64,000 bases of DNA from NCBI GenBank assembly GCA_040285855.1, contig JAUFOQ010000001.1, positions 3,224,001 through 3,288,000 of the forward strand, given 5' to 3'. The position numbers and the translations under genes are program-made. This DNA is from Eukaryota sp. GEM-RC1. Its lineage: Eukaryota. Below the pieces are notes generated by a model. That model saw nothing but the letters and a program-made list of their open reading frames with translations. It made no database searches and was not told the DNA's origin. Positions 33,132 to 62,968 of this stretch are shown here, piece by piece; positions within the stretch are counted from its first letter, which is position 1, and the number at the start of each line of letters is the position of its first letter.

Positions 33132-34737
33132 AAATCCAAGGTAATTCCTTGCCCTCCCTCCACTGCGAGTGTTCCTCGTAGAAGTGTAACACCCCGTTCT
33201 TTGTTCTCTCTGTGTCGTATGACAACTCCTACTTCATTAAAACGTTAAATACAATAAACAAATTTCAATAATAAAGCAAATCTTCGCTCTGGAAACAAGA
33301 ATTTAGGACATCTCAATAAGACTAATTTCATTCAAATCACTGAAAAAGCTCGTCAAGTAATCAACAATGACGATGACCTCTTCTATCTATCTCACTACTT
33401 CAAGTGTGATGGTCTATCTTCCCAAATCACGTCATCACTCAACTCTTCCCTCGTAGACTCCCAATACTTGTCTACCTTCATCTCAAAAGTTGCAAAACTG
33501 ACGATATCGGTGGTTATTTAGATATCAAACCTGGTGATACTCTTCATATTCCAAATATTCCTGGAGGATTTGGTTGGAGAGATGCTTCAATTTCCCTTTG
33601 GATATACTTTGAAGAAGGAGGAATTGGGTTTGATTGGAGATTGGCTTTGATGAATTAACATTTGTAAAATATTAGTTTCAATTACTAAAAGAACTGGGTA
33701 AGTAAGAGGAAAATACCTATTTTTGAGGAAGCCTCGTTCATTATAACTTATAAGTCGAGAAACTAAATCAAATTAGAACAAGTTTCTGACCAATTTAAAT
33801 TGATGTGGTAATTGGCTTCAGCCATTATTATTATTATTATTATTATTGAAATAACATAGAAGAATACTTCAATCAATCAATAAATAATTAAAAAAAGATT
33901 CTGAGTAGTGAAAATTCCTTCCTCCACTGGAGTAGAACCATTTAATAAGACTACTGATACAAAAGAAAAAAGAATTCTGTAACATAGAGAAATTGTCCAT
34001 CAATAGTTATGACAACTTTCCTCGATGACCTCAAATGACACTAGTAGATAAGAACAAGTGGTAATAAGAGAAGACAAAGTAACAAGTAGAAAGAGATAAA
34101 GAAGAACTGAGAAGACAGGGAAAGGCATTCCGCACAATGAAGAAGAGAATCTGAAAGAGTCTTTCGTGTGATTGTAATACACTCACGAATTTCTCAGCCC
34201 ATGAGAGATCACGTGATCATTTAAGTGAGAGGAGAAGAACTTAAGAGCGAAGTAGAAGAAAACTCGAAGGAAGAGGATCGGCTTGATGACGTAAGGTTGC
34301 GCGCCGATACCAGGGCGATCCCAGTCCACGAGAAGCAACGCTAGGAGGATTAGGAGGTGACATGAGGTAGAAGACTGATCATTCTAACTTGTTCTGCACC
34401 CAGACCAATTTCACTTCTCCTAATGCTACTCTTCCTTCACTCTTGCTTCCATTAGACAGAGTTGTTCCTATGTTGTGTCTCTATTCACAGCAAGGGTAAG
34501 TCACTCCGCTACTTAGTTGACCATGTTCCTAGTTTATTGACAACAACAATCGAACTAATGTCGATACATCATTCTGTTTCTATTTCTCTATCAAAATGAA
34601 ACCTTTTTTTGGATGGAAAGTTTTGATACGTAAACTTGTACATTATACTTTCACCAACCTAATACAACCGATTTTTATCTCGCATAGTCTTTGATGTCCA
34701 GTGCCTATCCACTTCTTGAATGAAGACGTGGTTTGTC
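33132..34737 (+). repeat. Dispersed repeat, copy 2 (more diverged; ATT microsatellite expansion at ~33824-33847)
   Basis: Collinear with copy 1 and with the reverse complement of 61068-62968. Confidence 0.9.
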
Positions 34738-35257: not shown

Positions 35258-37099
35258 ATGACTTCTACCCAAATCTCCCCTACTTCTCTCTGCATCAAGC
35301 TCTTGGAAACTTCCCTGAAACATGATTTCGTTTCCAGCTTTAAAGATCTTCAAATCCCATGCCATTCCGTCGTCCTCGTTCAGTTCTCTGAATTTTTTCA
35401 TAATCTGTTTACTCTTAACTTTTCCGATGACCAGGAAACCCAAGATTTCTCTTCCCTCAATGTCTCCGCCTCTTCCTTTCGCTCCTTCTTCTCCTATCTC
35501 TACGCTCAGCCAGTAGAGATCGCGCTTGACAATCTTTATGAGTTCTACGTGCTTTCTAGATACTTTATGGTTGAAGATCTCAAGACTACTTGTCTTGAAT
35601 TGCTAACTTCCTTTTCTAACTCTACTGATTCTTTACTTTTTCTTGTCAAACAAGCAAGTCATTGCCATGACCAAGAATTCTTAAATCACTTGTTACCGTT
35701 TTTCAATTCTGATTTCGAAACCATGTCCGAAAGTTTTCATCTTTGTTTTGAATATTTGTTGCTCTTTGGTAAAGAGTTTGAATTTAAAAATCAAGTTATT
35801 TGGTTGTTGAGTTGCTTACTGAAATCTATTTACAATCAACAAATTGATGATGAACAGTTCCATTCATTTTTAGATATTTTAAAAGTTGAGAATCTGACTG
35901 GTCATGAATTATTTCAATATCTTATTCAACATGTCATTGATAATTCAATTTTTGAGGCTTCATTTGTCAAATTTTCGTTGGATTATTTTTCCAATAATTT
36001 CAACATTTCAAATATTCCATTGAACTGGGTTCTGAAAGTGTTAGTCATACTAAATCGTGAAAATTCTTCTGAAGTATTTGAAATTATTCCACTTGTTTCA
36101 CAGTTTCAAGATTTTTCTCATCAACAACTTCTTTCTCTGAATCCAAAAGTATTGCTTGAAATGGTTAGTAAATCTTCGAATAGTAGAGACTTTTCAATAT
36201 TTTGCCTCCAAAATCTGATTAAATCCTGGTCATCTGGAAAAGGAAGTTCTTGGCAATCAAATGACGTCAAAGATTGTCTTGAGTCAATCAATTTGTCGTT
36301 ATTAACTGGGTCAGAAATCCAATCGTTGATTCTTACTCCTTTAGGAGATGATGACGAGTTGGTTTTAATTATTTCAAAAATTACGAATAAGGTCATTGTT
36401 CCTGGTTTAGTTGATAGTTTTGAACTTCAAAAGGAAGAGTTGAAAAAGGAACTGGAAAATTTAAAGAATGAGAATGAGTTGTTATTGTCCAAAAACAATG
36501 AATTAGAGGCAGAAAATCTTGTTCTATGCAATCAATTTGAGTAGTTTAAACAGAAGGCAGAAGAGAATGAAAGAAACAGAATTGAAGCTCTCAACAAGGC
36601 AAAATCAGAGGAAAATGAAAGAATAATAATTGAACTGAGTAAGAATTTATTCAACAGTAACGTTTGTGGTTCTTTGCTTTCCTTATCAAATAACAATACA
36701 GTTGTTAAAAAGAATGGTTACAATGGTGATGCCAATAGTTTTGTAGAAGTTAATAATTCAGACAATTGTTCTGTTAAATTTACAAGGTTAGATAATTGTA
36801 CGTGTGGTAATACTGAGTATATTGGTTGGAAAGATAGAGGTAGTCTTCAGCGTAGTTCTGAACCGAGTCCTCGTATTTGTCCCAGAGGTAACTACAGTGG
36901 AGGATCTTTCTCCCCTTCAAATCCAAGATTCCCTAAAATTACCAGAGGAGAATCAATTACTGTTAGTTTTTCTAATGGTAAAGCCCACTTCAAACCTTCT
37001 ACTTGTACAACTACTTTTAGTATTGATATTCCTAGTAATTTGGTTTTTGGAATGGAAGTTTTTGGTCAAAATCATGAATGGAAAGCGGAACGTGTTTGA
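35258..37099 (+). pseudogene. BTB - helical region - coiled coil - SPRY-like protein with an in-frame TAG at 36542
   Basis: Starts MTSTQISP, with KHDF..FKDLQIPCHS..YFMVEDLK. GAG TAG TTT here versus GAG TCG TTT in the 45091 paralog; the frame resumes to HEWKAERV*. Confidence 0.85.
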
Positions 37100-37334
37100 T
37101 TGATGTGATTTGATTGTTTTGTTTCTTACGAAATGGAGTTGTACTGTACTTGTTTTTAATCCTCATTGACTCTGCTTGTCTGTTTCTTTGAAATTGGAGA
37201 ATTTTCAACTATAGAAACAATTTCATCTGTGCCGTTAAAAACCATTGGTGACTCATCAAAATAAACCTTAAAGTCTTTTACCACTAACTTACTCTAGACC
37301 AAACCCCAATCTTTACTCTTCAATTGTTGCTTAG

Positions 37335-38100: not shown

Positions 38101-38569
38101 CTAAATCCATTGTACATATATTTGAAAACACTGAATCAATTTGAGTACACAAAACATAAATGAGAACAGAACAACTATTGTCATCGATGATTTAAAAATT
38201 AATTCGAAAACTACTCCCGAGAGCAACTTGTCTCCATTTAGCAAATTTGTTTGGGTTAATTGAAGCTGAACAATATGTTTGATCATATTCTACAATAGAT
38301 ATTCTACAAAATGATTCTTACTCTTAATCATTCTTGACGAGTACACACGGCTAAAATACATTCATTAACATGACAATTCTCTCCGTCTAAAAGGTAGTAG
38401 CACTCATCAAGTCTACATTTACTAAGGTAACTCAATGACTGAGACACTAGAGGCAACGTGATCAAGTTTGTATGGAAACTGAAGAAATGTTTTTCAGTGT
38501 CCATTAAACAAACTCCAGCTTTTAACATTAAATGACGATGAGAGATCGCACAGTAACTGTAAAGGCTAG

Positions 38570-39412
38570 TGATTTTTTACTTTTTCTAGTTAAACAAGCA
38601 AGTCAATGCCACGATCAAAAAGTCTTAAAGCACTTGTTACAGTTTTTCGATTCTGCTTTTGAAACCATACCTGAAAGTTTTCCTCTATGTTTTGAATATT
38701 TGTTGCTTTTTGGTGAAGAATTTGGATTTAAAAATCAAGTTATTTGGTTACTGAATTGTTTACTAAAATCTATTAATAGTCAACAAATTGATGATGAACA
38801 GTTCGATGCATTTTTAAATATCTTGAATTTTGAGACTGTTTCCGGTCATGAAATATTTCAATATCTGATTCAACCCTTTTAATAATTCAATTTATGAGGC
38901 TTCAATTGTCCAATTTTCACTCAATTATTTTCCCAAAAATTTCTGTATTTCAAATAATCCATTAATCTGGGTCCTAAGAACCTTAGAAACACTGAATTGC
39001 CAAACATTTTCTGAAGTATTTGATCTTATTCCACTTGTTTCACAGTTTCAAGATTTCTCTCATCAACCAATGTTTTCTCTGAATCCAAAAGTATTGCTTA
39101 AAATGGTTAGAAAATCTTCCAATAACAGAGACTATTTAACATTTTGCCTCCAAAATCTGCTTGAATCCTGGTCATCTGAGAAAAAGAAGTTGTTGGCAAT
39201 CAAATGATGTCAAGGATTGTCTTGAGTCAGTCAATTTGTCATTTTTAACCGGGTTAGATATACAATCGTTGATTGTTACTCCTTTCGGGAATGATGACCA
39301 ACTAGTGCCTGTTATTTCCAAAATCACACTTAATGTCATCGTTCCTGGTTTAGTTAATAGTTTTGAAATTGAAAAGAAGAGTGGAAAACTGAAAAGGCAC
39401 AATTACTTTTAA
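38570..39412 (+). pseudogene. Internal fragment of the BTB family gene
   Basis: FLVKQASQCHDQ...QVIWLLNCLLKS...WQSNDVKDCLES matches the paralogs. It lacks the BTB and C-terminal domains and contains stops. Confidence 0.85.
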
Positions 39413-41014
39413 AAATTCAAAATTTAGAAACATCTTTAACCAATTCTCAACCAATCTCTATTTTTTACAGAATATTGAAGAAACTGTAAATGACATTGAA
39501 TTTGATATTTGCTCCTTAGTACAATCATTGACAAATTGTAATGTTGTTGATGAAGACGAAGTTTTGAGTGGTCCCTTTGGTGTTCGTCATGATAACTGCT
39601 GTAAAGAAGATCTTTCGGAGGGTTCTTCAGCTGTTTCTTCCAACAACAATGCTTTTGATGTTGAAGTCACTGAACCTACTTCTGTTCATTTTGGATCTAA
39701 CTTTGGTGAAGCTGAAAACGTGGGAACGCGACACCGAACAGTCGTGTCTTCTGGAAATGGTTATAGAAATGGTTATAGAAATAGTAGTTACAGTGGAAAT
39801 GGAAATGGTTATTGGAGAGGTGGTTTTCGTGGTGATAGAAGACGTTGTTCTAGTGGTAGATCACGTCGATTCAAATCCTTACAATTGCTGTAATTCATTA
39901 AATTATTTTGGTCATTGGTTAAAAATGTTTGTTGGACTCTGAACCGCTCTTTTTTGTTGATTGCTCATGTTTCTGCCAAAGCTCTTGCCTCTTTAGTATC
40001 TAACAAGAACTAGAGTATCATTTTTAATTTTAGTATATACTTTTAAAACGTCTAACAATGATCTAGCACATATCCACAATAAAGTTTACAATAAAATTCA
40101 AATTGATCCATTATTGTAAGCATTCGATGTATACGTTTCTGATGATGCTCTAGTATCTTGATTTTATTTTATTTACTACTTTTTGTAAGAATCACCCTTA
40201 TTTAAAATACAATGCAAATGTAACTTAAATTAATTCTTGCAAAAGATTTTGTTTACTGTGTCAGATGCTGTCTCTGATGGAACAGTGAATGAATTGTCGT
40301 CTGAGCCCCCAACTCTAATAACCAAGATTGTAGAGTCTAAAAAAAATAAGGATACTAGTAGCTTAAAAGCAGAAAAGATTGTGAAGAAGAAGTTGTAGTA
40401 TTTTATCTATGTGAGAAACTCATCTACCGTAATTGATTTCTAGGATGTAGAGATTTGTATTTGGTGTTGAGAAACAGATATGCGGATTGGCTAACATATA
40501 CTGTCATGTGCCATCACTGTCATTACAATTCTCAAAATCGTGGCAAACCCAAGTTGCTTGAAACTGAACCAAATACAGCTTTGCACAAAGATCACAGTAG
40601 TAAAATCTGTCGATGCTTGACAAGAATCAAGATAAGACACAATGAAATCGCCTCGTCGAGAATTGGTAATGTTATCATCACTATAACGCTTAAGAAGAGT
40701 TTCAATATGCTCATTAAAACCATGACATTTGTACACTTCGTACGTAACGTCACGAACTGGATTGTGTAAAATCGATCAGAAGTTTAGACTGTGAACTGAA
40801 TAAACTTTTACAACTAACACTGTTTTGTAAATGTTTAGGTACTTCATCTACTACAGGTTCCATCTTTCCTGTGATATCTTTGCAACTAATGTATACAAAA
40901 GTATATTAACTAAAAGAAAACATACAAGAAAAAGACTAGCAGAGTCAAAGAGGATTTATAACAAGTACAGTACAACTCCATTTCGTAAGAAACGAAACAA
41001 TCGAATCACATCAA

Positions 41015-42817
41015 TCAAACACGTTCCACTTTCCATTCATGATTTTGAGCAAAAACTTCCAACCCGAAAACCAAATTACTAGGAATATCAATACTAAAAG
41101 TAGTTGTACAAGTAGAAGGTTTGAAGTAAGCTTTACCATTAGAAAAACTAACAGTAATTGATTCTCCTTTGGTAATTGTAGGGAATCTTGGAATTGAAGG
41201 GGAGAAAGTTCCTTCATGAGAGTACGCTGAAGGAGCAATACAAGGACTCGGAGTAGAATCATCTTGAGGACTACCTCTATCTTTCCAACCAATAAAGTCA
41301 GTACAAAAATCACCATGAAGATCATCTAACCTTGTAAATTTAACAGAACAATTGTCTGAAAGATTAACTTCTACAAAACTATTGGTATTACCAGTGAAAC
41401 CATTCTTTTGACAACACTATTGTTATTTGATAAGGAAAGTTTTGATCCACAAGTAGTAGAATCAAAAGTATCAATAAGAGCTTCAATTCTTCGTTTTTCA
41501 TTTTCCTCTTCTTCTTCTACCTTCTTTTTAAAGAGAAGTAGCGACTCAACTTCATTTTTTAAAACTAGAATCTCCATTTCTAATGCCTTGTTTTGGAACA
41601 GTAACAACTGTTTTTCGTTATTCCATTGTTCTTTTCCTTGTTCAACTCTTCCTTTTGAAGCTCAAAACTACCAACTGAACTGGTAACGATTACATTATTC
41701 TTAATTTTTGAAATAATAGAAATCAACTCATCATCATGTCCTAAAGGAGTAAGAATCAACGACTGTATTTCTGACGCAGTTAACAATGACAAATTAATTG
41801 ACTCAAGACAATCTTTAACGTCATTTGATTGCCAAGAACTTCCTTTCCAGATGACCAGGATTCAATCAGATTTTGAAGGCAAAATATTAAAAAGTCTCGA
41901 TTATTTGAAGATTTCTTAATCATTTCAAGTAATACTTTTGGATTGAGAGAAAGAAGTTGTTGATGAGAGAAGTCTTGAAACTGTGAAATAAGTGGAATAA
42001 TTTCAAATACTTCAGATGAAATTTCACGATTTAGAATGACTAACACTTTCAGAACCCAGTTTAGTGGAATATTTGAAATATTGAAAGTATTTGAAAAATA
42101 ATTGAGCGAAAATTTGACAATTGAAGCATCAAACATTGAATTATCAATGACGGGTTGAATAAGATATTGAAAAATTTCATTACCAGAAACATTCTCAACG
42201 TTCAAGATATTTAAAAAAGAATCAAACTGTTCTATATCGCGATGTTCACCAGATTTATATAAACAATTTAATAGCCAAATAAATTGATTTTTACGTCGAA
42301 ATTGTTTACCAAAAAGCAACAAATATTCAAAACAAAGAGGAAAACTTTCCGGAATGGCGTCAAAATCAGAAGTGAAAAATTGTAACAAAGAATTCAAAAA
42401 ATCTTCGTTATGGTTTCCACATTGTTTAACAAGAAAAAGTATAGACTCTGTAGAATTAGAAAAGTGAGATATTGACTTAAGACAAGAACTCTTGAGATCT
42501 TGTACCTCAAAGTATCTCGCGAGTATGTAGATTTCATAAAGATTCTCAAGAGTGATCTCTACTGGCTGAGCGTAGAAATAGGAGAAGAAGGAGTGAAAAG
42601 AAGAGGCGGAGACGTCGAGATAAGAAAAATCTGCAGAACTCTTATGTTTTGACGAGTCGCAAGTAAACATGTAGCGCAACACATCGGAACTTTGAGCGAG
42701 GACGACGGAATGACACGGGATTTGAAGATCTTTAAAGCTTACGACGAAATCATGTTTCAGTGAAGTTTGGAAGAGCTTGTTGCAGAGAGAAGTAGGGGAG
42801 ATTTGAGTAGATGTCAT
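41015..42817 (-). CDS. BTB - coiled coil - SPRY-like family paralog (several 1-nt frameshifts)
   Basis: MTSTQISP start. Manually rejoined C-terminus FTRLDDLHGDFCTDFIGWKDR...HEWKVERV*. Confidence 0.8.
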
Positions 42818-45090: not shown

Positions 45091-46890
45091 ATGACTTCTA
45101 CCCAAATCTCCCCTGCTTCTCTCTGCAACAACCTCTTCCAAACTTCACTGAAACATGATTTCATCTCTAGCTTCAAGGATCTTCAAATCCCATGCCATTC
45201 CGCCGTCCTCGTTCAGTTCTCTAAATTTTTCCATAATCTGTTCACCCTCAACTTGTCAGACGACCAGGAAACCCAAGATTTCTCTTCTCTCAATGTCTCC
45301 GCCTCTTCTTTTCGCTCCTTCTTCTATTATCTCTACGCTCAGCCAGTAGAGATTACCCTTGAGAATCTTTATGAGTTCTACGTTCTTTCTCGATACTTTA
45401 TGGTTGAAGATCTCAAGACTACTTGTCTTGCATTGTTAACTCACTTTTCAAACTCTACTGATTCTTCACTTTTTCTAGTTAAACAAGCAAGTCAATGTCA
45501 AGATCAAGATTTTTTAAAGCATCTGTTGCCGTTTTTCAATTCTGATTTCCAAACCTTACCCGAAAGTTTTTCTCTTTGTTTTGAATTTTTGTCGCTTTTT
45601 GGTGAAGATTTTGGATTTAAAAATCAAGTTGTTTGGTTATTGAATTGCTTACTGAAATCTATTGACAATCAACAACTTGATGATGAACAGTTCGATTCAT
45701 TTTTAAGTATTTTAAATGTTGAGAATCTTACTGGTCATGACCTATTTCAATATTTGATTCAACCCGTGATTGATAATTCAATTTTTGAGGCTTCAATTGT
45801 CAAATTTTCGTTGAAGTATTTTTCGAATAACTTCAACATTTCAAATATTCCATTGAACTGGGTTCTGAAAGTGTTGGTCATACTCAATCGTGAAAATTCT
45901 TCTGAAGTGTTTGAAATTATTCCACTTATTTCACAATTTCAAGATTTCTCTCATCAACAACTTCTTCCTCTGAATCCAAAAGTATTGCTTGAAATGGTTA
46001 GGAAATCGTCCAATAGTCGAAACTTTTTAATATTTTGCCTCCAAAATCTGATTAAATCCTGGTCATTTGGAAAAGGAAGTTCTTGGCAATCAAATGACGT
46101 CAAAGATTGTCTTGAGCCAATCAATTTGTCGTTTTTAACCGGGTCAGAAATACAATCGTTGATTCTTTCTCCTTTAGGAGATGAAGACGAGTTGGTTTTA
46201 ATTATTTCAAAAATTACGAATAAGGTAATTGTTCCTAGTTTAGTTGATAGTTTTGAACTTCAAAAGGAAGAGTTGAAAAAGGAACTGGAAAATTTAAAGA
46301 ATGAGAATGAGTTGTTATTGTCCAAAAACAATGAATTAGAGGCCGAACATCTGGCTTTAAACAATCAATTTGAGTCGTTTAAACAGAAGGTAGAAGAAGA
46401 AGAGAATGAAAGAAAAAGAATTGAACTCAGTAAGAATTTATTCAACAGTAATAATTGTGGATCAGAACTTTCCTTGTCCAATAACAATACAGTTGTTAAA
46501 AAGAATGGTTACAATGGTGATGCCAATAGTTTTGTAGAAGTTAATAATTCAGACAATTGTTCTGTTAAATTTACAAGGTTATATAATTGTACTTGTGGTA
46601 ATACTGACTATATTGGGTGGAAAGATAGAGGTAGTCTTCAAGATGGTTCTACTCCGAGTCCTCGTATTGCTCCTATAGGATGGTCTCATAGAGGATCTTT
46701 CTCCCCTTCAAATACAGGTTTCCCTACAATTACCAAAGGAGAATCAATTACTGTTAGTTTTTCTAATGGCAAAGCTTACTTCAAACCTTCTACTTGTACA
46801 ACTACTTTAACTATTGATATTCCTAGTAATTTGGTTTTTGGGATGGAAGTTTATGCTCAAAATCATGAGTGGAAAGTGGAACGTGTTTGA
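45091..46890 (+). CDS. BTB - coiled coil - SPRY-like family paralog (intact, 599 aa)
   Basis: Uninterrupted ORF: BTB N-terminus, coiled coil at about aa 390-450, and a beta-rich C-terminus starting [10 protein letters not shown]. The SPRY-like label is inferred. Confidence 0.9.
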   Translation: MTSTQISPASLCNNLFQTSLKHDFISSFKDLQIPCHSAVLVQFSKFFHNLFTLNLSDDQETQDFSSLNVSASSFRSFFYYLYAQPVEITLENLYEFYVLSRYFMVEDLKTTCLALLTHFSNSTDSSLFLVKQASQCQDQDFLKHLLPFFNSDFQTLPESFSLCFEFLSLFGEDFGFKNQVVWLLNCLLKSIDNQQLDDEQFDSFLSILNVENLTGHDLFQYLIQPVIDNSIFEASIVKFSLKYFSNNFNISNIPLNWVLKVLVILNRENSSEVFEIIPLISQFQDFSHQQLLPLNPKVLLEMVRKSSNSRNFLIFCLQNLIKSWSFGKGSSWQSNDVKDCLEPINLSFLTGSEIQSLILSPLGDEDELVLIISKITNKVIVPSLVDSFELQKEELKKELENLKNENELLLSKNNELEAEHLALNNQFESFKQKVEEEENERKRIELSKNLFNSNNCGSELSLSNNNTVVKKNGYNGDANSFVEVNNSDNCSVKFTRLYNCTCGNTDYIGWKDRGSLQDGSTPSPRIAPIGWSHRGSFSPSNTGFPTITKGESITVSFSNGKAYFKPSTCTTTLTIDIPSNLVFGMEVYAQNHEWKVERV

Positions 46891-50205: not shown

Positions 50206-51243
50206 ATGTCTCCTGTCAGTCTTCCCGAAGTAGTTCACGGCCCGGAGTATACACCTTATCCTTGTGGTTCATCCTCTCACAACCATGGTGACACTATATT
50301 TCCCCCGCCTCTTAAGAAGTCTCACCTGTCTTCTGTAGATGACATCCCACTGTATTGCCTTATTGATTTTAAAACGGTCATTACCGATAGTGAACGACTT
50401 ACCCCACTCCTTTTCAATGTTAAGAAGAAATCTCTTCCAAAATGCACTACTACAGAATCTTCAACAGAAATTGTTTCTAAAGAACAAGAGGCTGCTGAAG
50501 TTCCAACAATCAGTGAAGAAATTGAAGTGTCCAGGCCAGAGCTGGTACCAAATGCGGAGGATGATCAAATCATCCTTATTGTCCTCACATTTATTTACAC
50601 CAATTTCGTTTCTACTGTTGTCATCAGTACCAAAAAAACAAGTGATTTTGATGGTGTTCAAACAATTACTTTTCCATCAGAAGAAGTCATGATTAATGGT
50701 CTTATATCTTTACTGTCCGAGAAAAAGCCTAGATTGCTTATAAGTTATAACTCTGAAAAATTATTGTTCCCGTTTTTAATTGCACGATGTAAACTTTTGA
50801 ACATCTCCACTACATTTAATGTGGATGAGCCATTCAGGCCTTTTATTCCCATCTGGTTCTATAGATGGTGTAAGCAAAGCGAATTTGGACCATTTATTTC
50901 CCTTGACATGGCAAATGTTGTAAAGTCAACCTATGTTTTCAAAGGTGGTAGAGGTTTAGAAAATGTTTGCTCCAAATTGTTTCAAAAGGCAATACCTAAT
51001 TTAATTTTATCACCAACTGAATTCAAAACTTACTTCAACCAATTCAAAAAAATCCTAAAAATATCAACGGTTAGCCCTGAACGGGAGAGGGAGTTTACTT
51101 TGCTTGCTCAAAATATTAAAACTTCCAAGTTATGGATGGATGACAGAAAACGCAACTCTCTGGTTGAAGATTTGCTGAACAAAATTAAGATGTTGTCCGA
51201 ATTGAAGAATTATTTTTTGATGAAGAAATTCAGCTTGTTTTAG
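50206..51243 (+). CDS. Inactivated family-B DNA polymerase 3'-5' exonuclease-like domain (probable N-terminus of the Fanzor fusion)
   Basis: LIDFKT (ExoI-like), PNAEDDQIILI, FPSEEVMINGL...PRLLISYNSEKLLFPFLIAR (ExoII-like) and SLDMANVVK...LENVCSKLF follow the PolB exonuclease pattern. Acidic catalytic residues are partly lost. Confidence 0.65.
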   Translation: MSPVSLPEVVHGPEYTPYPCGSSSHNHGDTIFPPPLKKSHLSSVDDIPLYCLIDFKTVITDSERLTPLLFNVKKKSLPKCTTTESSTEIVSKEQEAAEVPTISEEIEVSRPELVPNAEDDQIILIVLTFIYTNFVSTVVISTKKTSDFDGVQTITFPSEEVMINGLISLLSEKKPRLLISYNSEKLLFPFLIARCKLLNISTTFNVDEPFRPFIPIWFYRWCKQSEFGPFISLDMANVVKSTYVFKGGRGLENVCSKLFQKAIPNLILSPTEFKTYFNQFKKILKISTVSPEREREFTLLAQNIKTSKLWMDDRKRNSLVEDLLNKIKMLSELKNYFLMKKFSLF

Positions 51244-54055
51244 ACCGCCCTCCGATTAAAGTCGTAAAAAAGGATTGGATAAGGTTTTCAGAGATTATGA
51301 AAACATTCAATTAATTAAAATTTGTTCTAAACGAAATCAAAAAGCAACTGTGAGGGGGAACCACCTTCTTGAAGCATTTGCTTCTACGTGAATTTGAAGA
51401 TTTTGGAAGAATCGAAGCTGAATCAATAGTCAAAGAAAGAGAATTGATGTTACTGCACGATGACCCTTCGTTGTCCATGATTGGAAATGATTCTGAGTCT
51501 TCTGAGAATTGTAATATCTGCTATAATTACAAAGACTTTTCGGTTCGCTTACCAGATTTGAGTCCTTTTTGGCTCTTGGATCAATAAGGCACGTTCTCCG
51601 ACGAATGTATGTGGAGAAAAAAAGGCTTGCGGTATTTCCGACTTGAAAATGTCAAAAATAGAAGCAGAAGCAGTTTTACAAAATGAAAAATTTGATCATT
51701 CTTTGAAACAAAAAATCGCATTACATTACTGTAATAATTTTTATCCAATTCTTGACTCTCTGTCTCATGAAATTGGAAGTAACAACATTTCTTTTCCTAA
51801 TTTGGAGTTTATGTCAGGCATTTATCATTATACGGCTAAACAAATTGAAACCAATTATGCTAACAATTTGGCGAAATACTTCCACAACTATGTCTTTCGC
51901 TACTTTAACATTGTTACGTTGAAGAACTATCGTCTTAAACAAATTAAAGAGCAACACTTAAAGAAGGAATTGAAATCAAAATTAAATTCCATCAGAGAAC
52001 TGATTATTGATGGAAACTTTGAAGACATTCCAATTGATGATCATATCATTTTCCCCTTCCCGCAATCAGAATTGACTTTAATCTTTTTGCATATTTAAAA
52101 TTCTGTTTGTTCCCTACCATTGCCAAAGGCAAGAATCTTTACTACGCTCAGAAAGTCAAGCCACTACAATTTCTTTCTCATGCTGTTTATATCAACAGAA
52201 TCATTCAGTCTTTTTGTTCAATTGATGGGAAACCCTTAAAGGTTAATAATCCGTTCCCAATGACCAAGACGTTGGTCCCACAGCATATTAGATTAGATAC
52301 TGCTTGGATAAACCAAAGAGTTTTAAATTTGAAAGGTTCCGCTAACGTTATTCGAAAGGAAGTATTTGACTCTGTACTTACCGAAACAGGTATTACATCA
52401 TCACGATCATTTGGTCTGAAGTATTCTTCGATTGTAACAGATGGCATTTCCTGTTCCTTGGTTATGATTCGAAAAGATTTGCTGGATGAAAACGGTAACA
52501 CCTTTGAAGATTTTACCGCAAAATCACTAATATCTTCGGAAAGATATATTGACTCTTTAACGTCGGAAGACATTGAAAAAATGAACCTGACAGAAAAGAG
52601 AATAATTGGCATTGACCCGAATGAATATGACTTGATGTTTTGCGTATCTCCAAAAACAAATGAAGAGATATTATTTGAAGAATTTTCTTGTTCGGACAAA
52701 TATCCCACGAAAAAACGGCTACCTTCAGAAATGAGACTGAAACAAAAAGGTGGTATTAAAAAAAGAAAAAAACAATTGAACCAATGGAGACAAACCCCAT
52801 CTCAACGAGTACGGCTGAAACCAAACCACTTTTTGACCAGCTTCAGGTACAGTGCTGGGGAGAGATCATATGACCGAAAAAGCAAGAAATATCGGTTGAC
52901 TGAAAGAAGAAAACTAAAAACTTCCTTCTTTGAAATTACGAAAACAGAAACTGAAAGATCGCTCCAAGATTATACAGTCGAAAATTCTAATGGTAGAACT
53001 GTTTCTGGTCAAGAAATCCTCGACGAATTTGCTCTTGCCGTCTCTAGAGGACAACAAAGGTCCTGTTTCAGTGATGAGTTCGAGACTTACATCAAAGAAG
53101 CTGAACGGAGTTGTGTATACCTGAGTGATTTCTATGAAGACGATTGGTTTACGAAAAGGAAGTTTCAAATTTATTCCAACAATCAACAGAGTGAAGATAA
53201 TATGTTGGAAAGGTTTAAATTAACCTATGGATCTCCAGAAGACCTTGTCCTTGGTTACGGGGACTGGAGTTCTAAGGGAAACACAAGAAAAGGTAAAACT
53301 CCAGCTATTAGAGGAGCAGAAATCCGAAGAATGTTAAGAAAATTCGGGTATAAGGTATTTCTAGTTGACGAATACCGTACCAGCAAGTCCTGTTCAAAGT
53401 GTGCTGCTCAAGGACTATTTGGATTATGTACAAATGATCCATCTATCAAAGTTTTAGGCCCAAGAGGACTGCGTCAAATAAGACGGAAGAAGAAGAAACT
53501 CAAGGAAAAAGTACTGGTCTACAACCGTAAGGATCCACCGAAAAGAGAAGCTTTGAAGACGAGTGGGAGAAGATAAAGAAGTCCGTAGAAGTAAAAGCAA
53601 AGTCAACACCATGGGGGCTGGTGAAATGCAAAAGGTGCAAGACTTATTGGAATAGAGATCTCAACTCTTCGATCAATATCTATTCCATTATCGAAGCCGC
53701 TATCAAAGGTCAAGCTAGACCATCTATTCTCGAGAGATCACAAACTTTAACAACTGATTTCGAGAGTGGTAATGTTACTTTGAAGAGAGATCGAAAAGAG
53801 ACTGCAGCGAAAAAGACTCGTAAAGAAAGAGAGTGTGGAGAATGTGGACAAACAGGTCACGACATACGAACATGTCCACAGCTAGATGAGTCAAACCAGG
53901 GTTCACCTAAAACTGGATCGAGAAAAGAAAAGGAGGAACCCCACCGAAGGCAGTCAAAAAGAAGAAGATCTCCCTTGAAGAAATCAGTCCACCATAAACG
54001 GTCGGACAGCGCTATGTGTATGAAGCTATCTCAGTCTCACCGTATCATCTCATAG
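51219..54055 (+). CDS. Fanzor1 (TnpB/Cas12-like RuvC RNA-guided endonuclease), split by 1-nt indels
   Basis: IVTDGISCSL; RuvC-I IIGIDPN (D 52614); VLGYGDWS; VFLVDEYRTSKSCSKC (E 53370); WGLVKCKRCKTYWNRDLNSSINI (D 53657). The N-terminal region has NLYYAQKVKPLQFL and IETNYANNL. Confidence 0.88.
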
Positions 54056-54146
54056 CATAGCGTGTCTGTGATGCCTAAATGGATATGACCAAAGTGGGAG
54101 CAGGATTTACTTTGGGAGGATTATCCATTTGGCATGAACTTCACAG
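54003..54146 (+). ncRNA. Candidate Fanzor omegaRNA scaffold
   Basis: Two long imperfect hairpins overlap and follow the Fanzor stop codon: 54003-54068 and 54071-54135. Confidence 0.6.
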
Positions 54147-55400
54147 CACTATACAAAATTTGTTTTCTTGCTATACATAGTACACTCGTGTAGCATTCCC
54201 AGTTACGATACAAAATATCGATCACGTCTTCTTCATCCTCAGAATCGTCTTCATTGCTTTTCTGTAACAACCACTGCACATGAAAATCTTCCAGAGTAAG
54301 TCGTTTCCGCAATTGTAGTAGCTCGTGAGCACATGGTTTACGGTACACTCTTCTATGATATCCTTTACAATCAAGTTCTTCACTAAAAGGATCTTCTTCT
54401 TCAACTTCTGGCTTAGCATCTTTAAAAACTGTTGGTGAACCATTTCCAGAGCTCATGCTGATACTTTTCTATGGAGTCTGTTGAACATTGATTCTCCAGC
54501 AATCTTTGTCAATCTTTGATGTTTTTCTTTTCAATATCAAAGTTTCTCTCTTCAGCTGATCTTCTCATGATTTCAATTGCACGTTCTGCAGATTCCAACA
54601 AAGTCATGTTGCTGATTTTTTGATTGTTCTTCAAATGAGCATGTGAACCATCTACTTTCTGGCTTGAATACTTTTTTTGAGAACTTTTGCTTATTATTGC
54701 CATAAGTGCAATCCATAATAACTATAGAATTTAATTGTTTGAAAAGTTCTTTGTTGTCCTTACATACCATTAGCAAGTGATCTATGTTTCTATTGTCATC
54801 AATTTCAAATTCAAAGTCTACATCATCAGAGTAGGTGTTAATAAGATAGTCTAATGCAGAACTGTTTCCAATTGCTCTTTCTTTTCCTTAGCGATTTACA
54901 TTATAAAGATCATTTAATGTTAGATTCATTATTCCTTCTTAAAAGAGTATATCACGAGTAATCCTCACACTGCGAAATGCATCCAAGGTTTGTTCTACTT
55001 TACGTTTTATTTTAGGAGACAAAGACTTCCCTCTATGAGCAGAGAAGTATTATCATGTGATTGTGGTCACTACAGTGTATACCAAGTGCACCAAATTTTG
55101 CACATTTTGCTTGTTTTCACGTATTTGATGCATTTTGGATCTTAACGATCCATGCATTTTGATTTAGATGTGTTCTCCAAATGTGTTTTTTATTCCGTAT
55201 CAACTTTGACCATGTTATACATGACTCTGGGCACACTATATTTGCCATAAACATAGATAAAATCCATAATTTACACACTCAATCTCGACTGTTTATGATT
55301 CTCATGTCACTACTACTCTTATTAGAAAAGCCATCACCAGCTACAGCGAATCCAAAAATATACATTTAGTTTTCATAATACCCTTGCAAATCTGATTTGT
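54121..55400 (-). mobile_element. Decayed, internally deleted MULE transposase convergent with Fanzor
   Basis: HNH-type N-terminal remnant, TLNDLYNV, SIVIMDCTYGNNKQKF (first Asp), QKVDGSHAHLK (Glu-region-like) and SWIM-like CKG...KPCAHE...LEDFHVQW. Confidence 0.7.
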
Positions 55401-55589
55401 CCATAAAATAGTTTCCCCTAGCATCCTTTGTTACTTTGCTATTTATCTCAAAATTAGTAGTTTTGGTAAAATATGGAGTAGGACACTAAATTTTGAATGA
55501 TTGATTCGAAATGGATACGATTGCTTTCAATTAAATTCTATCACAATACGACTCAAATTCTTTGGCAGCAATCAATCAAATCACATCAA

Positions 55590-57390
55590 TCAAACACGTT
55601 CCACTTTCCATTCATGATTTTGACCATAAACTGTCATTCCAAAAACCAAATAACTAGGAGTATCAATACTAAAAGTAGTTGTACAAGTAGACGGTTTGAA
55701 GTAAGCTTTACCATTAGAAAAACTAACAGTAATTGATTCTCCTCTGGTAATTGTAGGGAAACTTGGTTTTGAAGGGGCGAAAGAACCTTCACTGTAGTTA
55801 CCTCTAGGCCCAATACAAGTACTCAAAGAACCATTCTGAAATCTATTTCTATCTTTCCAACCAATAAAGTCAGTAATACCATCTCCATGAAGATCATCTA
55901 ACCTTGTAAATTTAACAGAACAATTATCTGAAAGATTAACTTCTAAAAAACTATTGGCACTACCATTGGAACCATTCTTTTCAACAACAGTATTGTTATT
56001 TGATAAGGAAAGCAAAGAACCACAAACGTTACTGTTGAATAAATTCTTATTCAGTTCAATTATTCTTCTTTCATTTTCCTCTGTTTTTGCCTTCTGTTTA
56101 AACGACTCAAATTGATTGCATAGAACCAGATTTTCGGCCTCTAATTCATTGTTTTTGGACAATAACAACTCATTCTCATTCCTTAAATTTTCCAGTTCCT
56201 TTTTCAACTCTTCCTTTTGAAGATCAAAACTATCAACTAAACTAGGAACAATAACCTTATTCGTAATTTTTGAAATAATTAAAACTAACTCGTCGTCATC
56301 TCCTAACGGAGAAAGAATCAACGATTATATGTCTGAGCCAGTTAATAACGACAAATTGATTGACTCAAGACAATCTTTGACGTCATTTGATTGCCAAGAA
56401 CTTCCCTTTTCCAGATGACCAGGATTTAATCAAATTTTGGAGGCAAAATATTGAAAAGTCTCTACTATTTGAAGATTTCCTAACCATTTCAAGCAATACT
56501 TTTGGATTCAGAGAAAGAAGTTGTTGATGAGAAAAATCTTGAAACTGTGAAATAAGTGGAATAATTTCAAATACTTCAGAAGAATTTTCACGATTTAGTA
56601 TGACTAACACTTTCAGAACCCAGTTCAATAGAATATTTGAAATGTTGAAATTATTGGAAAAATAATCCAACGAAAATTTGACAATTGGAGCCTCAAAAAT
56701 TGAATTGTCAATGACGTGTTGAATAAGAAATTGAAATAATTCATGACCAGTAAGATTCTCAACATTTAAAATATGTAAAAATGAATCGAACTGTTCATCA
56801 TCAATTTGTTGATTGTCAATAGATTTCAGTAAGCAATTCAATAACCAAACAACTTGATTTTTAAATCCCAAATCTTCACCAAAAAGCAAAAAATAGTCAA
56901 AACAAAGAGGAAAACTTTCAGGTAAGGTTTCGAAATCAGAATTGAAATACGGTAATAAATGCTTTAAGAACTCTTGATCTTGATATTGATTTGCTTGTTT
57001 AACAAGAAAAAGTAAAGAATCAGTAGAGTTTGAAAAGGTAGTTAGCAATCCAAGACAAGTAGTCTTGAGATCTTCAACCATAAAGTATCGAGAAAGCACG
57101 TAGAACTCATAAAGATTCTCAAGGGTAATCTCTACTGGCTGAGCGTAGAGATATGAGAAGAAGGAGCGAAAAGAAGAGGCGGAGACATTGAGAGAAGAGA
57201 AATCTTGGGTTTCCTGGTCGTCTGAGAAGTTGAGGGTGAACAGATTATGGAAAAATTTGGAGAACTGAACGAGGACGACGGAATGGCATGGGATTTGAAG
57301 ATCCTTGAAGCTAGAGATGAAATCATGTTTCAATGAAGTTTGTAAGAGGTTGTTGCAGAGAGAAGCAGGGGAGATTTGGGTAGAAGTCAT
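55590..57390 (-). CDS. BTB - coiled coil - SPRY-like family paralog (one frameshift near 56405)
   Basis: MTSTQISP at 57390. ORFs 56383-57531 and 55590-56321 join to match the 599 aa paralog. Confidence 0.85.
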
Positions 57391-58593
57391 TGGATGAGAA
57401 ATGCACCTGTGTAAAATACATACTACAGTACAAGTAACATATTTTTGAATCATTTTGTTTTCGTCACTTATTTTGAAAAAAACGGCGTTTTTTATACTTG
57501 TCAACGTTTTTAATTTTCCGAATTGACACAAAAAAGCACGACTTTCTACTTCACTTTTGTCTTAATGTAACAGGTGTTATTTCATGTATGTTATTTCTGA
57601 CCCTGAAACAAGGCAAGAGCATTTGTTGGTGACACTATTACTGGTACAGTGTATGCTCTTCGGTTCTGTATCGGAGTGAAACGACCTTCAGGTACACCCT
57701 AACAGTGTTCTTGTTCCATATCCCTTGTTATCTTCCCGTCCTGACCACGTGATCATCGTTAGTTGAGCACTGTACTTCATCTTCATGATGTTCTCCTTCC
57801 AATCTCAAAAGATCATAGCTGCAATGATCGAACTTTGAAAGATCTGATCGATGAAAATGAAGTGAAAAAAGTGAAAAGTTGAAAAAGTTGATCTGCCCCT
57901 TTTGAACGTTTGTATTTAATTTCTAAAAAACGTAAAAAACGATAAAAACCGGCGTTTTTTATTTTTGAACAACCTTTTTACAAGCCTACATACTAATATG
58001 TTCAGTTCAACACGTGTTGGATAAATTCTAAGCAGGAGAACACAATAACTCACTTTAAGATCAACCAAAGGAAACAAATTCTTCTTTTCACTCATATTAC
58101 AATGGAACCAAGTTCATAAATTGGACCTGATTTTCAATGATTCCAGAACTGATAACAAGAAGAGCTCATCAATAATCGATACATTTAAGTAAACTTTTGA
58201 GCAAAGTCGATTTTTCCACCTGTATTCAATATAGTTTTATCAAGAACAGTAGAAAGTTACACAAATTCATTGAAGCGACATAGAAGAATGATATATTCAA
58301 CACATGTTGAAGTGACTCAGAACATATTAAAATACACATAGACATCCACATTTTCTTCATCCAAACTCATATCCACAACGAAGCCACACTCTGGCACTTC
58401 TCGTAATTTTAGAGTTCTGTGACTCCCCAAATTGCATCCTAGTAACATTTGCCGACGTTGTATATCCAATACTCATGTCACATGCCAATAACTCCCGATA
58501 GACATTGTTACTCCTTCGATTGAAAAGAGAAATGATTTTTTCAACTGAATTGCCTTTGAGAAAATCAAACGGACATGGAAACGTACATTTTAT

Positions 58594-61120
58594 AATAAGT
58601 GAAAGGTATTGATGAAAAGCACGAACCCCGTCCTACAACTGAAATACACTCATACGACAATAAAGTAAGTTGAAGTTGTATTTCAAAAGTTGTATTTGGG
58701 TCCCAAAACGGTAACTTTCTCACAAGATATTTTCAACAGAATGATAGAAAACATTGCTTAATTACCACTGCAAATAAGAACATACCAACAATTTAACAAA
58801 TGAGATACCGACACATTTATGTACATTGTAAACAATAGTTGTATTTTTATATTGTTAAATTTTTTTAAAGAGGTAATCGAAAGTTTAAGTATACTTACCT
58901 TCTCAAAAGAACCAAACTGAAAACGGAAAAACAACTCACTGTGTATAATCGCCATTTCATCAATATTCAACCAACAGTTCTCCAGTCACTGGTAATGACG
59001 TGACAGATGAACAAGTGTTTGATTGATGGAAATACAATCGACAAACCACGCCTTCATTCAAGAAGTGGATAGGCAATGGACATCAAAGACTAATAAAATA
59101 AAATAAGTGAAAGGTATTGATGAAAAGCACGAACCCCGTCCTACAACTGAAATACACTCATACGACAATAAAGTAAGTTGAAGTTGTATTTCAAAAGTTG
59201 TATTTGGGTCCCAAAACGGTAACTTTCTCACAAGATATTTTCAACAGAATGATAGAAAACATTGCTTAATTACCACTGCAAATAAGAACATACCAACAAT
59301 TTAACAAATGAGATACCGACACATTTATGTACATTGTAAACAATAGTTGTATTTTTATATTGTTAAATTTTTTAAAGAGGTAATCGAAAGTTTAAGTATA
59401 CTTACCTTCTCAAAAGAACCAAACTGAAAACGGAAAAACAACTCACTGTGTATAATCGCCATTTCATCAACATTCAACCAACAGTTCTCCAGTCACTGGT
59501 AATGACGTGACAGATGAACAAGTGTTTGATTGATGGAAATACAATCGACAAACCACGCCTTCATTCAAGAAGTGGATAGGCAATGGACATCAAAGACTAA
59601 TAAAATAAAATAAGTGAAAGGTATTGATGAAAAGCACGAACTCTGTCCTACAACTGAAATACACTCATACGACAATAAAGTAAGTTGAAGTTATATTTCA
59701 AAAGTTGTATTTGGGTCCCAAAACGGTAACTTTCTCACAAGATATTTTCAACAGAATGATAGAAAACATTGCTTAATTACCACTGCAAATAAGAACATAC
59801 CAACAATTTAACAAATGAGATACCGACACATTTATGTACATTGTAAACAATAGTTGTATTTTTATATTGTTAAATTTTTTAAAGAGGTAATCGAAAGTTT
59901 AAGTATACTTACCTTCTCAAAAGAACCAAACTGAAAACGGAAAAACAACTCACTGTGTATAATCGCCATTTCATCAATATTCAACCAACAGTTCTCCAGT
60001 CACTGGTAATGACGTGACAGATGAACAAGTGTTTGATTGATGGAAATACAATCGACAAACCACGCCTTCATTCAAGAAGTGGATAGGCAATGGACATCAA
60101 AGACTAATAAAATAAAATAAGTGAAAGGTATTGATGAAAAGCACGAACCCCGTCCTACAACTGAAATACACTCATACGACAATAAAGTAAGTTGAAGTTG
60201 TATTTCAAAAGTTGTATTTGGGTCCCAAAACGGTAACTTTCTCACAAGATATTTTCAACAGAATGATAGAAAACATTGCTTAATTACCACTGCAAATAAG
60301 AACATACCAACAATTTAACAAATGAGATACCGACACATTTATGTACATTGTAAACAATAGTTGTATTTTTATATTGTTAAATTTTTTAAAGAGGTAATCG
60401 AAAGTTTAAGTATACTTACCTTCTCAAAAGAACCAAACTGAAAACGGAAAAACAACTCACTGTGTATAATCGCCATTTCATCAATATTCAACCAACAGTT
60501 CTCCAGTCACTGGTAATGACGTGACAGATGAACAAGTGTTTGATTGATGGAAATACAATCGACAAACCACGCCTTCATTCAAGAAGTGGATAGGCAATGG
60601 ACATCAAAGACTAATAAAATAAAATAAGTGAAAGGTATTGATGAAAAGCACGAACCCCGTCCTACAACTGAAATACACTCATACGACAATAAAGTAAGTT
60701 GAAGTTGTATTTCAAAAGTTGTATTTGGGTCCCAAAACGGTAACTTTCTCACAAGATATTTTCAACAGAATGATAGAAAACATTACTTAATTACCACTGC
60801 AAATAAGAACATACCAACAATTTAACAAATGAGATACCGACACATTTATGTACATTGTAAACAATAGTTGTATTTTTATATTGTTAAATTTTTTAAAGAG
60901 GTAATCGAAAGTTTAAGTATACTTACCTTCTCAAAAGAACCAAACTGAAAACGGAAAAACAACTCACTGTGTATAATCGCCATTTCATCAACATTCAACC
61001 AACAGTTCTCCAGTCACTGGTAATGACGTGACAGATGAACAAGTGTTTGATTGATGGAAATACAATCGACAAACCACGCCTTCATTCAAGAAGTGGATAG
61101 GCAATGGACATCAAAGACTA
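58594..61120. repeat. Tandem array of five ~507 bp units
   Basis: GAAAGGTATTGATGAAAAGC recurs at 58601, 59109, 59616, 60123 and 60630. Units are nearly identical. Confidence 0.97.
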
Positions 61121-62968
61121 TGCGAGAAGCAATAGGTTGTATTAGGTAGGTGAAAGTATAATATACAAGGTTACATATCAAAAGTTTCCATCCAAAAAGG
61201 TCCATTTTGATAAATAAACAGAGACAGTATGGTGTATCTACATTAGTTTAATTGTTGTTGTCATTAACCCAGAGACTTGGTCAACTACGAAGAGGACTGA
61301 CTTACCCTTGCTGTGAATAGAGACATTTCACAGGAACAACTCTGGAAATCTAATGGAAGTAAGAGTGAAGGAATAATAGCATTAGGATAACAGTTAAATT
61401 GGGTGCAGAACAAGTTAGAATGATCACTCATCTAACCTAATGACACCTCCTAATCCTCCTAGCGTTGCTTCTCGTAGACTGGGATCGCCCTGGTATCGGC
61501 GCGCAACCTTACATCATCAAGCCGATCCTCTTATTTCGAGTTTTCTTCTACTCTGCTCTTAAGTTGTTCTTTCTCTCACTTGAATGATCACGTGATCTCT
61601 CATGGGCTGAGACATTCGTGGGTGTATTACAATCACACGAAAGACTCTTCTAGAATCTCTTCTTCATTATGCGAATGTCTTTCCCTGTCTTCTCAGTTTT
61701 TCTTCATCTCTCTCTACTTTTTTGCCTTCTCTCATTACCACTTGTTCTTATCTACTAGTTTCATTTGGGGCCATCGAGGCAGTTTTCATAACTATTGATG
61801 GAGAATTTCTTCAATGTTACTGAATTCTTTTTCCTTTTGTATCAATAATCTTATTAAATGGTTCTACTCAGTGGAGGAAGGAATTTTCACTACTCAGAAT
61901 CTTTTTTTAATTATTTATAGATTTATTGAAGTATTCTTCTATGTTATTTTAATGTTTTTAATGGCTGAAGCCAATTACCACATCAATTTAAATTGGTCAG
62001 AAACTTTTTCTAATTTGATTTAGTTTCTATACTTATAAGTTATAATGAACCAGGTTTCCTCAAAAATAGGTATTTTCCTCTTACTTACCCAGTTCTTTTA
62101 GTAATTTAAACAAATATTTTAAAAATGTTAATTTATCAAAGCCAATCTCCAATCAAACCCAATTCCTCCTTCTTCAAAGTATATCCAAAGGGAAATAGAA
62201 GCATCTCTCCAACCAAATTCTCCAGGAATATTTGGAATATGAAGAGTATCATCAGGTTTGATATCTAAATAACCACCGATATCGTCAGTTTTCCAACTTT
62301 TGAGATGAAGGTAGACAAGTATTGGGAGTCTACGAGGGGAGTTGAGTGATGACGTGATTTGGGAAGATAGAGCATCACACTTGTAATTCTTTTTTTTTGA
62401 TTGTTGTTTCAATTTTGACGAAGAATTATTGAGAGATCCTATAGTTGTTCTGTAAGGATTAGGAGTAATTAATTAATTAATTGTAGAAGATGATACAGGG
62501 ACTTCATTACATTTCTCGACACTTGTATTTTACTTTTGTTTCTTGATATAGTTTTTGAGGAGACATTTACTTCTTACTGTGGTTTTTAAGGATCCACGTA
62601 AATTCCTTTTTATATTCTTACGATGAATGGAATAAAGTTCTTCATTACCTGAATTGTGAGTTAATTGTTGTGCTGGCAGAGAGGGATGCGACTAAGTAGT
62701 GAGATAGATAGAAGAGTTCATAGCCATCGTCATTGTTGATTACTTGACGAGCTTTGTGAGTGATTTGAATGAAAGTAGTCTTATTGAGATGCCCTAGATT
62801 CTTGCGGCTAGAGCGAAGATTTGCTCTCTATTTTTGAAATTTGTTTATTATATTTAACGTTTTCACGAAGTAGGAGGTGTCATACGATACAGAGAGAACA
62901 AAGAACGGGTGTTACACTTCTACAAGGAATACCCGTACTGGGGGAAGAGGAGGAATTACCTTGGATTT
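61068..62968 (-). repeat. Dispersed repeat, copy 3 (inverted, with a 310 bp insertion at 62384-62693)
   Basis: The reverse complement matches copies 1 and 2. Confidence 0.9.

Follow-up and report, generated by a model that had tools for sequence, protein, structure and literature searches.

The interrupted gene and its two parts

We analysed a stretch of 64,000 nucleotides from Eukaryota sp. GEM-RC1 (GenBank assembly GCA_040285855.1, contig JAUFOQ010000001.1, positions 3,224,001 to 3,288,000 of the forward strand), referred to below as the window. At 50206-54055 on its plus strand, five open reading frames (ORFs) and six frame changes make up one interrupted gene, the N-terminal part of which resembles the 3'-5' exonuclease domain of family-B DNA polymerases (PolB) and the remainder of which is a Fanzor1-type nuclease. 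Its features are listed here; P-numbers denote protein records found in our searches, nearly all of them relatives of this gene.

50206..51216, plus strand: 3'-5' exonuclease domain of the PolB type, ExoI being followed by a disordered acidic insertion (PF03104, AF2, Foldseek, VIA); three of four catalytic acidic residues lost
50365..50376, plus strand: ExoI site DFKT, on model strand E20-28; first Asp kept, Glu replaced by Lys (DIET, DVET or DFET in relatives)
50743..50769, plus strand: ExoII site SYNSEKLLF; Asp replaced by Leu (GYNCDKFDI in relative P0019)
51169..51183, plus strand: ExoIII-equivalent helix DLLNK; Tyr and Asp of YxxxD lost; gapless local match to YCVND of P0019
51190..51292, plus strand: exonuclease-Fanzor junction, spanning break 1 (T6, 51213-51218) and break 2 (A6, 51266-51271); ungapped match to P0007, P0008, P0001 and P0003
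51255..53743, plus strand: Fanzor1 part (WED/REC/RuvC/zinc finger) with breaks 2-6 near 51270, 51365, 51578, 52070 and 53540; PDB matches, 251-bit profile, colinear with P0019
52614..52616, plus strand: RuvC-I Asp (GIDPN), assigned from the sequence; conserved alignment column
53370..53372, plus strand: RuvC-II Glu (DEYRTS), six residues ahead of the first CxxC (53391-53402)
53657..53659, plus strand: RuvC-III Asp (WNRD), past the second CxxC (53627-53638)
53834..53875, plus strand: CCHC zinc knuckle in the basic C-terminal tail (zf-CCHC_6, E 0.004, below the Pfam cut-off); stop codon at 54053-54055

Read in their own frames, the seven pieces of the gene contain no stop and give 1,281 residues with an X at each break. 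For each of six pieces, no frame but the proposed one is free of stops, and none scores higher to relatives; the margins are thin for the three short pieces. In the short middle frame, which carries DEEIQ...IKVVK, a stop stands at 51186 and the motif is preceded by no ATG. An initial annotation, made by a model from the letters alone, had described five plus-strand ORFs, six frame changes and the motifs named above, no substitution-type stop, and a DEEIQ...IKVVK frame with this stop and no upstream ATG; all of these were found where it had placed them. Its six single-base break sites stand in part: homology places breaks 1-3 within one or two codons, break 3 being backed in addition by GEM-RC1 records (VRGTHFLKH, against VRGN-X-FLKH in the window), whereas breaks 4-6 are genuine frame changes whose exact base may lie anywhere in the open-frame overlaps 51562-51587, 52041-52098 and 53531-53576.

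The region 50206-51240 matches PF03104 in Pfam (E 7.5e-11; 42.3 bits against a curated cut-off of 23), and the first ORF also matches archaeal PolBs in the PDB. An AlphaFold2 (AF2) model built on a 25-row alignment has a mean predicted local distance difference test score (pLDDT) of 59.6, with 80-94 in the core. Searched with Foldseek, it matches PolB exonuclease domains (E 3e-8), and VIA-align gives Z 12-13 and a root-mean-square deviation of 3.7-6 Å over about 150-170 residues, tied among the African swine fever virus (ASFV), delta, epsilon, zeta and archaeal enzymes. This model supersedes a first one from five sequences (pLDDT 39), whose weak RNase H-like matches were led by integrases. The proposal that the N-terminal part is PolB exonuclease-like is borne out by these results, and the RNase H/DnaQ-like fold that had been named as a check on it was found in the form of a PolB exonuclease fold. 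No match to the polymerase palm (PF00136) came from the pieces of the window gene or from any family protein scanned, and the palm is present in the true PolBs P0021, P0022, P0024 and P0025; the stretch NCNICYN was considered as a palm remnant and dropped because it sits within the Fanzor REC region. As to the donor of the domain, archaeal PolB and Pol delta are best by sequence, with tied structural scores. An origin from giant viruses found less support, the exonuclease regions of 75 Imitervirales-type PolBs scoring 45 bits at best and 33 in the median against 62-79 for four archaeal-type PolBs, which had been picked by similarity to the query in a comparison that contained no eukaryotic polymerases.

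The catalytic set of ExoI DxE, ExoII D and ExoIII YxxxD is not complete in the window copy, which keeps the first ExoI Asp only. The loss of catalysis proposed initially from ExoI and ExoII is in fact more extensive, with three of the four acidic residues gone and the ExoIII motif lost in addition. Judged from its residues, the window copy is without exonuclease catalysis.

In the Fanzor part, a 511-codon frame at 52041-53573 matches the solved Fanzor1s GtFz1, SpuFz1 and PpFz1 (E 3e-14 to 2e-11), and a profile made from 14 stand-alone Fanzor1s scores the whole part at 251 bits. We also tested the Fanzor1 motif D-X(125,275)-[TS][TS]-XX-C4 finger-X-RD, with the RuvC-II Glu beside the zinc finger, a placement described as Fanzor-type in the accessible text of PMC13565253. 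It is present as GIDPN, DEYRTSKSCSKC, CKRC and WNRD with a D-to-TS spacing of about 254 residues, and the stretch between the two CxxC pairs contains break 6. The WED/REC/RuvC order and the similarity to solved Fanzor1s are found in the PDB matches, the profile and the alignment alike, and the host is eukaryotic, as seen from the neighbouring BTB, ARID, Ras-family, F-box and Urm1 genes and from 31 of 31 relatives. By every sequence feature tested, the locus is a Fanzor1. The solved-structure matches and the profile score bear out the identity first given to it, and the RuvC triad and CxxC..CxxC finger are intact, as had been noted, with GIDPN, DEYRTS, WNRD and both CxxC pairs present. The basic C-terminal tail with its CCHC knuckle (53744-54055, plus strand) may come from a neighbouring element; by motif search, the knuckle occurs in none of the 37 proteins compared.

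Related fusions in skoliomonad genomes

A search of longer proteins with a Fanzor piece yielded a single match among 7,054 candidates: P0001, of 1,324 residues, from Eukaryota sp. TZLM3-RCL, which carries PF03104 and whose cluster has nine members. A full HMMER search with the exonuclease ORF gave 15 proteins (10 of the family, 4 ordinary PolBs and 1 false match), and their clusters added 12. Counted without the false match P0023 (fibronectin repeats) and the four ordinary PolBs, the family comprises 31 records, 14 from TZLM3-RCL, 16 from GEM-RC1 and 1 from TZLM1-RC; these are three skoliomonad genomes, and none lies elsewhere. Copies are found on several contigs per genome. According to the accessible text of PMC11316075, which makes no mention of Fanzor, the RCL and GEM-RC isolates are Skoliomonas, free-living soda-lake metamonads, and their assemblies are from Nanopore reads with Illumina correction.

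The junction lies in one frame in 15 of the 31 records (9 RCL, 6 GEM-RC1); each of the remaining 16 is a fragment lying wholly to one side of the junction. Both the fusion into one frame and the expectation that other copies would carry the exonuclease region in frame with Fanzor, as set out in the initial annotation, are therefore supported. In six of the 31 records, ExoII and the three RuvC motifs stand together on a single chain, and four full-length ones (P0007, P0008, P0019 and P0026) keep all four exonuclease acidic residues together with the RuvC triad. The 35-residue junction across breaks 1 and 2 aligns with P0007 without gaps at a score of 45, compared with 17 at the next offset and 12 in the uncorrected frame; in a shuffle control, a score of 45 was reached anywhere in the protein by 1 of 5,000. 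P0019 (1,473 residues) is colinear with the whole X-read window protein over the six breaks, with 356 of 1,104 positions identical. In the subfamily of P0019, P0026 and P0027, NEYRTS stands in place of DEYRTS, with the catalytic Glu retained. A second copy, P0011, is 95% identical to the window gene and is broken at another place. Exonuclease-domain identity across the in-frame subfamilies is only 17-47%; the GEM-RC1 subfamilies, none of which has the ExoI DxE, are 30-47% identical to the window domain and have conserved blocks in common. These translated records show the architecture and its in-frame conservation across several subfamilies.

Since P0007, P0008, P0019 and P0026 have intact exonuclease residues, the ancestral domain was most likely active, and one lineage would later have lost catalysis but kept the fold. 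The “dead proofreading fold” put forward initially as an architecture holds for the window copy; because intact members exist, the dead state would be a lineage trait and not a property of the architecture.

Some relatives are larger. An exact D(V/I)ExNPGP 2A-like motif, defined as in a published abstract, stands near the start of 8 of the 31, with a one-residue variant in a ninth, and an Ulp1-like catalytic Cys motif occurs in 7, with Pfam C48 at or barely under its cut-off. P0007, P0008, P0015, P0018, P0031 and P0032 (TZLM3-RCL and GEM-RC1) have a short leader, the 2A-like motif and an Ulp1/C48-like protease ahead of the exonuclease domain, P0018 apparently with two protease-like units.

A direct BLASTP comparison of the exonuclease ORF with P0007 fell short of significance (E 0.88). 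A word-index search of longer proteins with this ORF gave 0 of 3,194 candidates, a negative shown to be false by P0019, which came up in the full HMMER search. Neither the exonuclease ORF among phages nor P0006 among viral contigs had a match, and among ESM Atlas clusters of at least 50 members none had both domains (top score 0.76). In 86 loci from viruses and metagenomes, stand-alone Fanzor1s begin at the strand right after the window exonuclease domain, and no ORF in these loci matches that domain; the 75 stand-alone Fanzors of at least 600 residues measure 602-676 residues and have no exonuclease match.

The window gene shares with described Fanzor1s (SpuFz1, 8gkh/9ceu; GtFz1, 9cer; PpFz1, 9cf0; Bao & Jurka 2013, PMC3627910; Saito 2023, PMC10432273; Xu 2024, PMC11423790) the RuvC D-E-D triad with its Glu by the zinc finger, the CxxC..CxxC pairs, the WED/REC order, the RuvC insertion, a structured RNA candidate past the stop and a DNA-transposon neighbourhood. 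However, known Fanzor1s are mostly 600-700 residues long, whereas the proteins of the fusion family have about 1,280-1,755 residues, carry a PolB exonuclease N-terminally and frequently include 2A and Ulp1 parts. With the proofreading domains of family-B polymerases (archaeal PolB, Pol delta, epsilon and zeta, ASFV Pol) the family has in common PF03104, the fold, the ExoI-III order and, in the RCL relatives, the four acidic residues; unlike those polymerases, it has no palm, fingers or thumb, carries an insertion of 50-90 residues after ExoI, and has an ExoIII helix that runs into Fanzor. Exonucleases have been tethered to Cas12/TnpB-type nucleases by engineering: in the accessible texts, exoCasMINI improved Cas12f (PMC12337685), and activity was impaired in fusions of TREX1, TREX2 or T5 to MmeFz2 (PMC12923547) and in T5E-SpuFz1 (PMC13434818). 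Those fusions are artificial, whereas the skoliomonad one occurs in nature, derives from PolB and has persisted through long divergence. Accessory nucleases of P and piggyBac transposons likewise place a 3'-5' exonuclease fold on a mobile element, but they are DEDDh and not PolB DEDDy, and the accessible text of PMC3627910 does not describe them as fused to an RNA-guided nuclease.

An exonuclease-Fanzor architecture was not found in the Fanzor literature searched, which consisted of titles and abstract openings; Repbase, other supplements and subscription-only papers lie outside this search and could matter. Nor did that literature contain a 2A motif in a Fanzor element, and nothing was found on Fanzor1 with Ulp1 or on Fanzor with metamonads. 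The word “exonuclease” has no occurrence in the accessible main texts of PMC3627910, PMC10530073, PMC10432273, PMC10711439, PMC11423790, PMC10691335 and PMC13565253, and the readable supplementary files of PMC10530073 and PMC10432273 contain no DNA_pol_B, PF03104, Peptidase_C48 or exonuclease. The gene is of a known nuclease kind, Fanzor1, with an architecture that we did not find described, which agrees with the initial annotation, to which no description of this architecture was known.

Interpretation and alternative explanations

Two features just past the gene enter into its interpretation.

54062..54149, plus strand: long stem-loop, candidate omegaRNA scaffold, starting 7 nt past the stop (-35.3 kcal/mol, z -5.15, 0 of 200 shuffles)
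54121..55290, minus strand: decayed, internally deleted MULE/MuDR-like (Mutator-like) transposase relic facing the Fanzor gene; weak ZSWIM RNase H-like match (E 0.0028, below cut-off)

The stem-loop has the third lowest z among 639 windows of 100 nt and belongs to no Rfam family, with only two sub-threshold matches in that database. Since the SpuFz1 omegaRNA, of 88-90 nt, comes from the stretch that separates the stop codon from the right end of its element (accessible text of PMC10432273), the hairpin after the stop is a fair candidate for the guide-RNA scaffold. A MuDR/MULE-Fanzor element would hold Fanzor and a MULE transposase inside shared terminal inverted repeats (TIRs), with a 9-bp target-site duplication; no TIRs common to the Fanzor gene and the adjoining relic were found. 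The relic has what we take, by eye and from MULE patterns, to be motifs of the HNH, MDCTY and SWIM-like kinds. MuDR elements are among the known carriers of Fanzor1 (accessible text of PMC3627910).

We propose, with fair confidence, that the locus is one frameshifted gene joining a PolB-type exonuclease to a Fanzor1, in a multicopy and likely mobile skoliomonad family that would cut empty donor sites with the predicted hairpin RNA. Fanzor1 is an omegaRNA-guided endonuclease that reads its target-adjacent motif (TAM) through WED and REC and has been proposed to restore its element at empty sites (accessible text of PMC13565253). Because the exonuclease domain ends about 20 residues ahead of the first WED strand, it would sit on the TAM side of the R-loop. 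The TAM-side product of TnpB/Fanzor cutting has a displaced 3' single strand of flank, which is unmatched to the donor junction and must come off before priming. An active proofreading domain would trim this 3' tail so that the end can prime copying of the element, and in the dead members, with the fold kept, the domain would likely be an end-binding, single-stranded-DNA-binding or structural module that holds the tail. In the full forms, the 2A-like motif would free the Ulp1-exonuclease-Fanzor chain from the leader peptide. A precedent may be phage T4 intron homing, which reportedly uses the 3'-5' exonuclease of the phage's polymerase. That the domain trims or holds the TAM-side DNA end is a tentative proposal. 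A fuller picture is speculative: skoliomonad elements might encode a naturally occurring RNA-guided enzyme with two nucleases, which would both cut the empty site and trim the non-homologous 3' tail for homing. It would be synthesised as a polyprotein that is processed at 2A and includes a SUMO-protease-like domain, and in the lineage of the window copy the exonuclease would have become a non-catalytic end-binding clamp.

Described Fanzors are compact single-nuclease proteins, and the fate of DNA ends after the cut, which decides copy-back, is largely untested in eukaryotes; a natural exonuclease-Fanzor fusion that exists in matched active and dead versions makes this question directly testable. 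The fusion family also extends Fanzor1 to metamonads and supplies genome engineering with a junction of exonuclease and Fanzor that evolution has shaped; in two engineered attempts at such a fusion, activity fell (accessible texts).

Several observations weigh against the proposed reading of the locus. The window contains neither the 2A motif (in six frames) nor an Ulp1 domain, none of the 16 GEM-RC1 records extends to the RuvC domain, and the ExoIII helix is of low confidence in the AF2 model (pLDDT < 50). The clade that the window and RCL Fanzors form against 14 stand-alone ones (support 97/97; SH-like approximate likelihood ratio test 99 with P0019 added) comes from trees without cellular Fanzor1s, the first of which had a long-branch warning. 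The hairpin folds as well on the reverse strand (z -5.13) and overlaps the end of the MULE-like relic, and no TIRs or target-site duplication were found around the window copy. As to the mechanism, engineered exonuclease fusions lowered MmeFz2 and SpuFz1 editing, which disfavours a simple “exonuclease helps” scheme; these assays, according to the accessible texts, score insertions and deletions, not homing.

Regarding the six breaks, we lean only slightly towards most of them being assembly errors. There is no stop in the gene, while 5.4% of substitutions would create one; runs of six, making up 1.7% of the bases, contain breaks 1 and 2; and the near-identical P0011 is broken elsewhere. Of 12 truncated siblings set against a longer one, 6 are accounted for in full, and a seventh almost so, by a shift of one base, mostly where the sequence is rich in F or K, and 3 of 5 BTB paralogs in the window shift frame at one A/G run. 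Against this, 5 of the 12 truncations are not accounted for by a one-base shift, true pseudogenes are present in the region (the stop-riddled MULE-like relic and a BTB copy that carries a substitution stop), and no break interrupts the host ORFs of 599, 794 and 470 codons close by. For decay it also speaks that slippage favours runs too, that breaks 3 and 4 lie outside long runs, and that the leader and element ends are missing from the window copy. Very small introns are an unlikely source of the breaks.

Among the other explanations, we consider it unlikely that the fusion is real with the exonuclease domain as a passenger, captured once and decaying, useful at most for spacing or solubility within a polyprotein, and with the window copy as a true pseudogene. 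The absence of the ExoI DxE from every GEM-RC1 subfamily would agree with this idea, as would the varying presence of the Ulp1 and 2A parts between subfamilies and the many decayed genes nearby. However, three RCL subfamilies that are 21-31% identical retain the catalytic residues they cover, the dead subfamilies retain the blocks WFxRWCK, GPF and KGGRxLxNV at 27-47% identity, and the window copy is free of stops.

It seems rather less probable that the domain acts on RNA, trimming or protecting the 3' (guide) end of the omegaRNA and so setting guide length. DEDD-family nucleases do include RNases, and the window copy also has a zinc knuckle beside the hairpin. Fanzor1 omegaRNAs, moreover, extend 14-15 nt past their conserved end and need a defined 3' end (accessible text of PMC10432273). 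Yet the domain is of the PolB type (DEDDy), a DNA-preferring class, and known Fanzor structures suggest that it is attached at the WED/TAM side, not at the 3' end of the guide.

A domesticated host system for RNA-guided defence or regulation, rather than a selfish element, is improbable: no element ends were found in the window and a host ARID gene lies about 700 bp away, but the many near-identical copies and fragments on different contigs fit a mobile element.

Two neighbouring genes or a chance insertion, whereby a dead polymerase fragment ends at a stop of its own and an independent Fanzor comes after it, perhaps joined only through small introns, would account for the TAG at 51241 in the assembly, for the 345-residue ORF as an ESM Atlas record of its own and for the frame-restoring GT-AG pairs at five of the six breaks, but this explanation is very improbable and appears largely refuted by the 15 of 31 relatives that cross the junction in frame with the same spacing; in addition, the first WED strand has no ATG ahead of it, conserved residues would be lost to an intron at break 1, break 5 has no GT-AG option, and no polymerase palm follows the exonuclease domain in any family record scanned.

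Neighbouring genes and repeats

Around the exonuclease-Fanzor gene, the window is eukaryotic and repeat-rich, with BTB paralogs and ARID, Ras-family, F-box, Urm1 and subtilase genes. The BTB/POZ family lies at 35258-37120, 38565-39403, 40926-42817, 45091-46890 and 55570-57453, with a 3' piece near 15686-16384; one copy is intact, three lose the frame within a shared A/G run (reference positions 979-984), and one has a substitution stop at codon 429. At 58591-61185 there is a tandem array of five 507-bp units that are 98-100% identical, save for the last, partial unit. A dispersed repeat of about 900 bp, possibly a young non-autonomous element, occurs at 25439-26422, 33364-33988 and 61440-62341 in both orientations (92-99% identical). 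The fragment at 24601-25008 (plus strand) resembles the C-terminal part of an Upf1/SF1 helicase, as judged by eye from its motifs. The strongest fold of the window, at 14950-15049 (-56.4 kcal/mol, z about -7), is located just upstream of a Ras-family gene.

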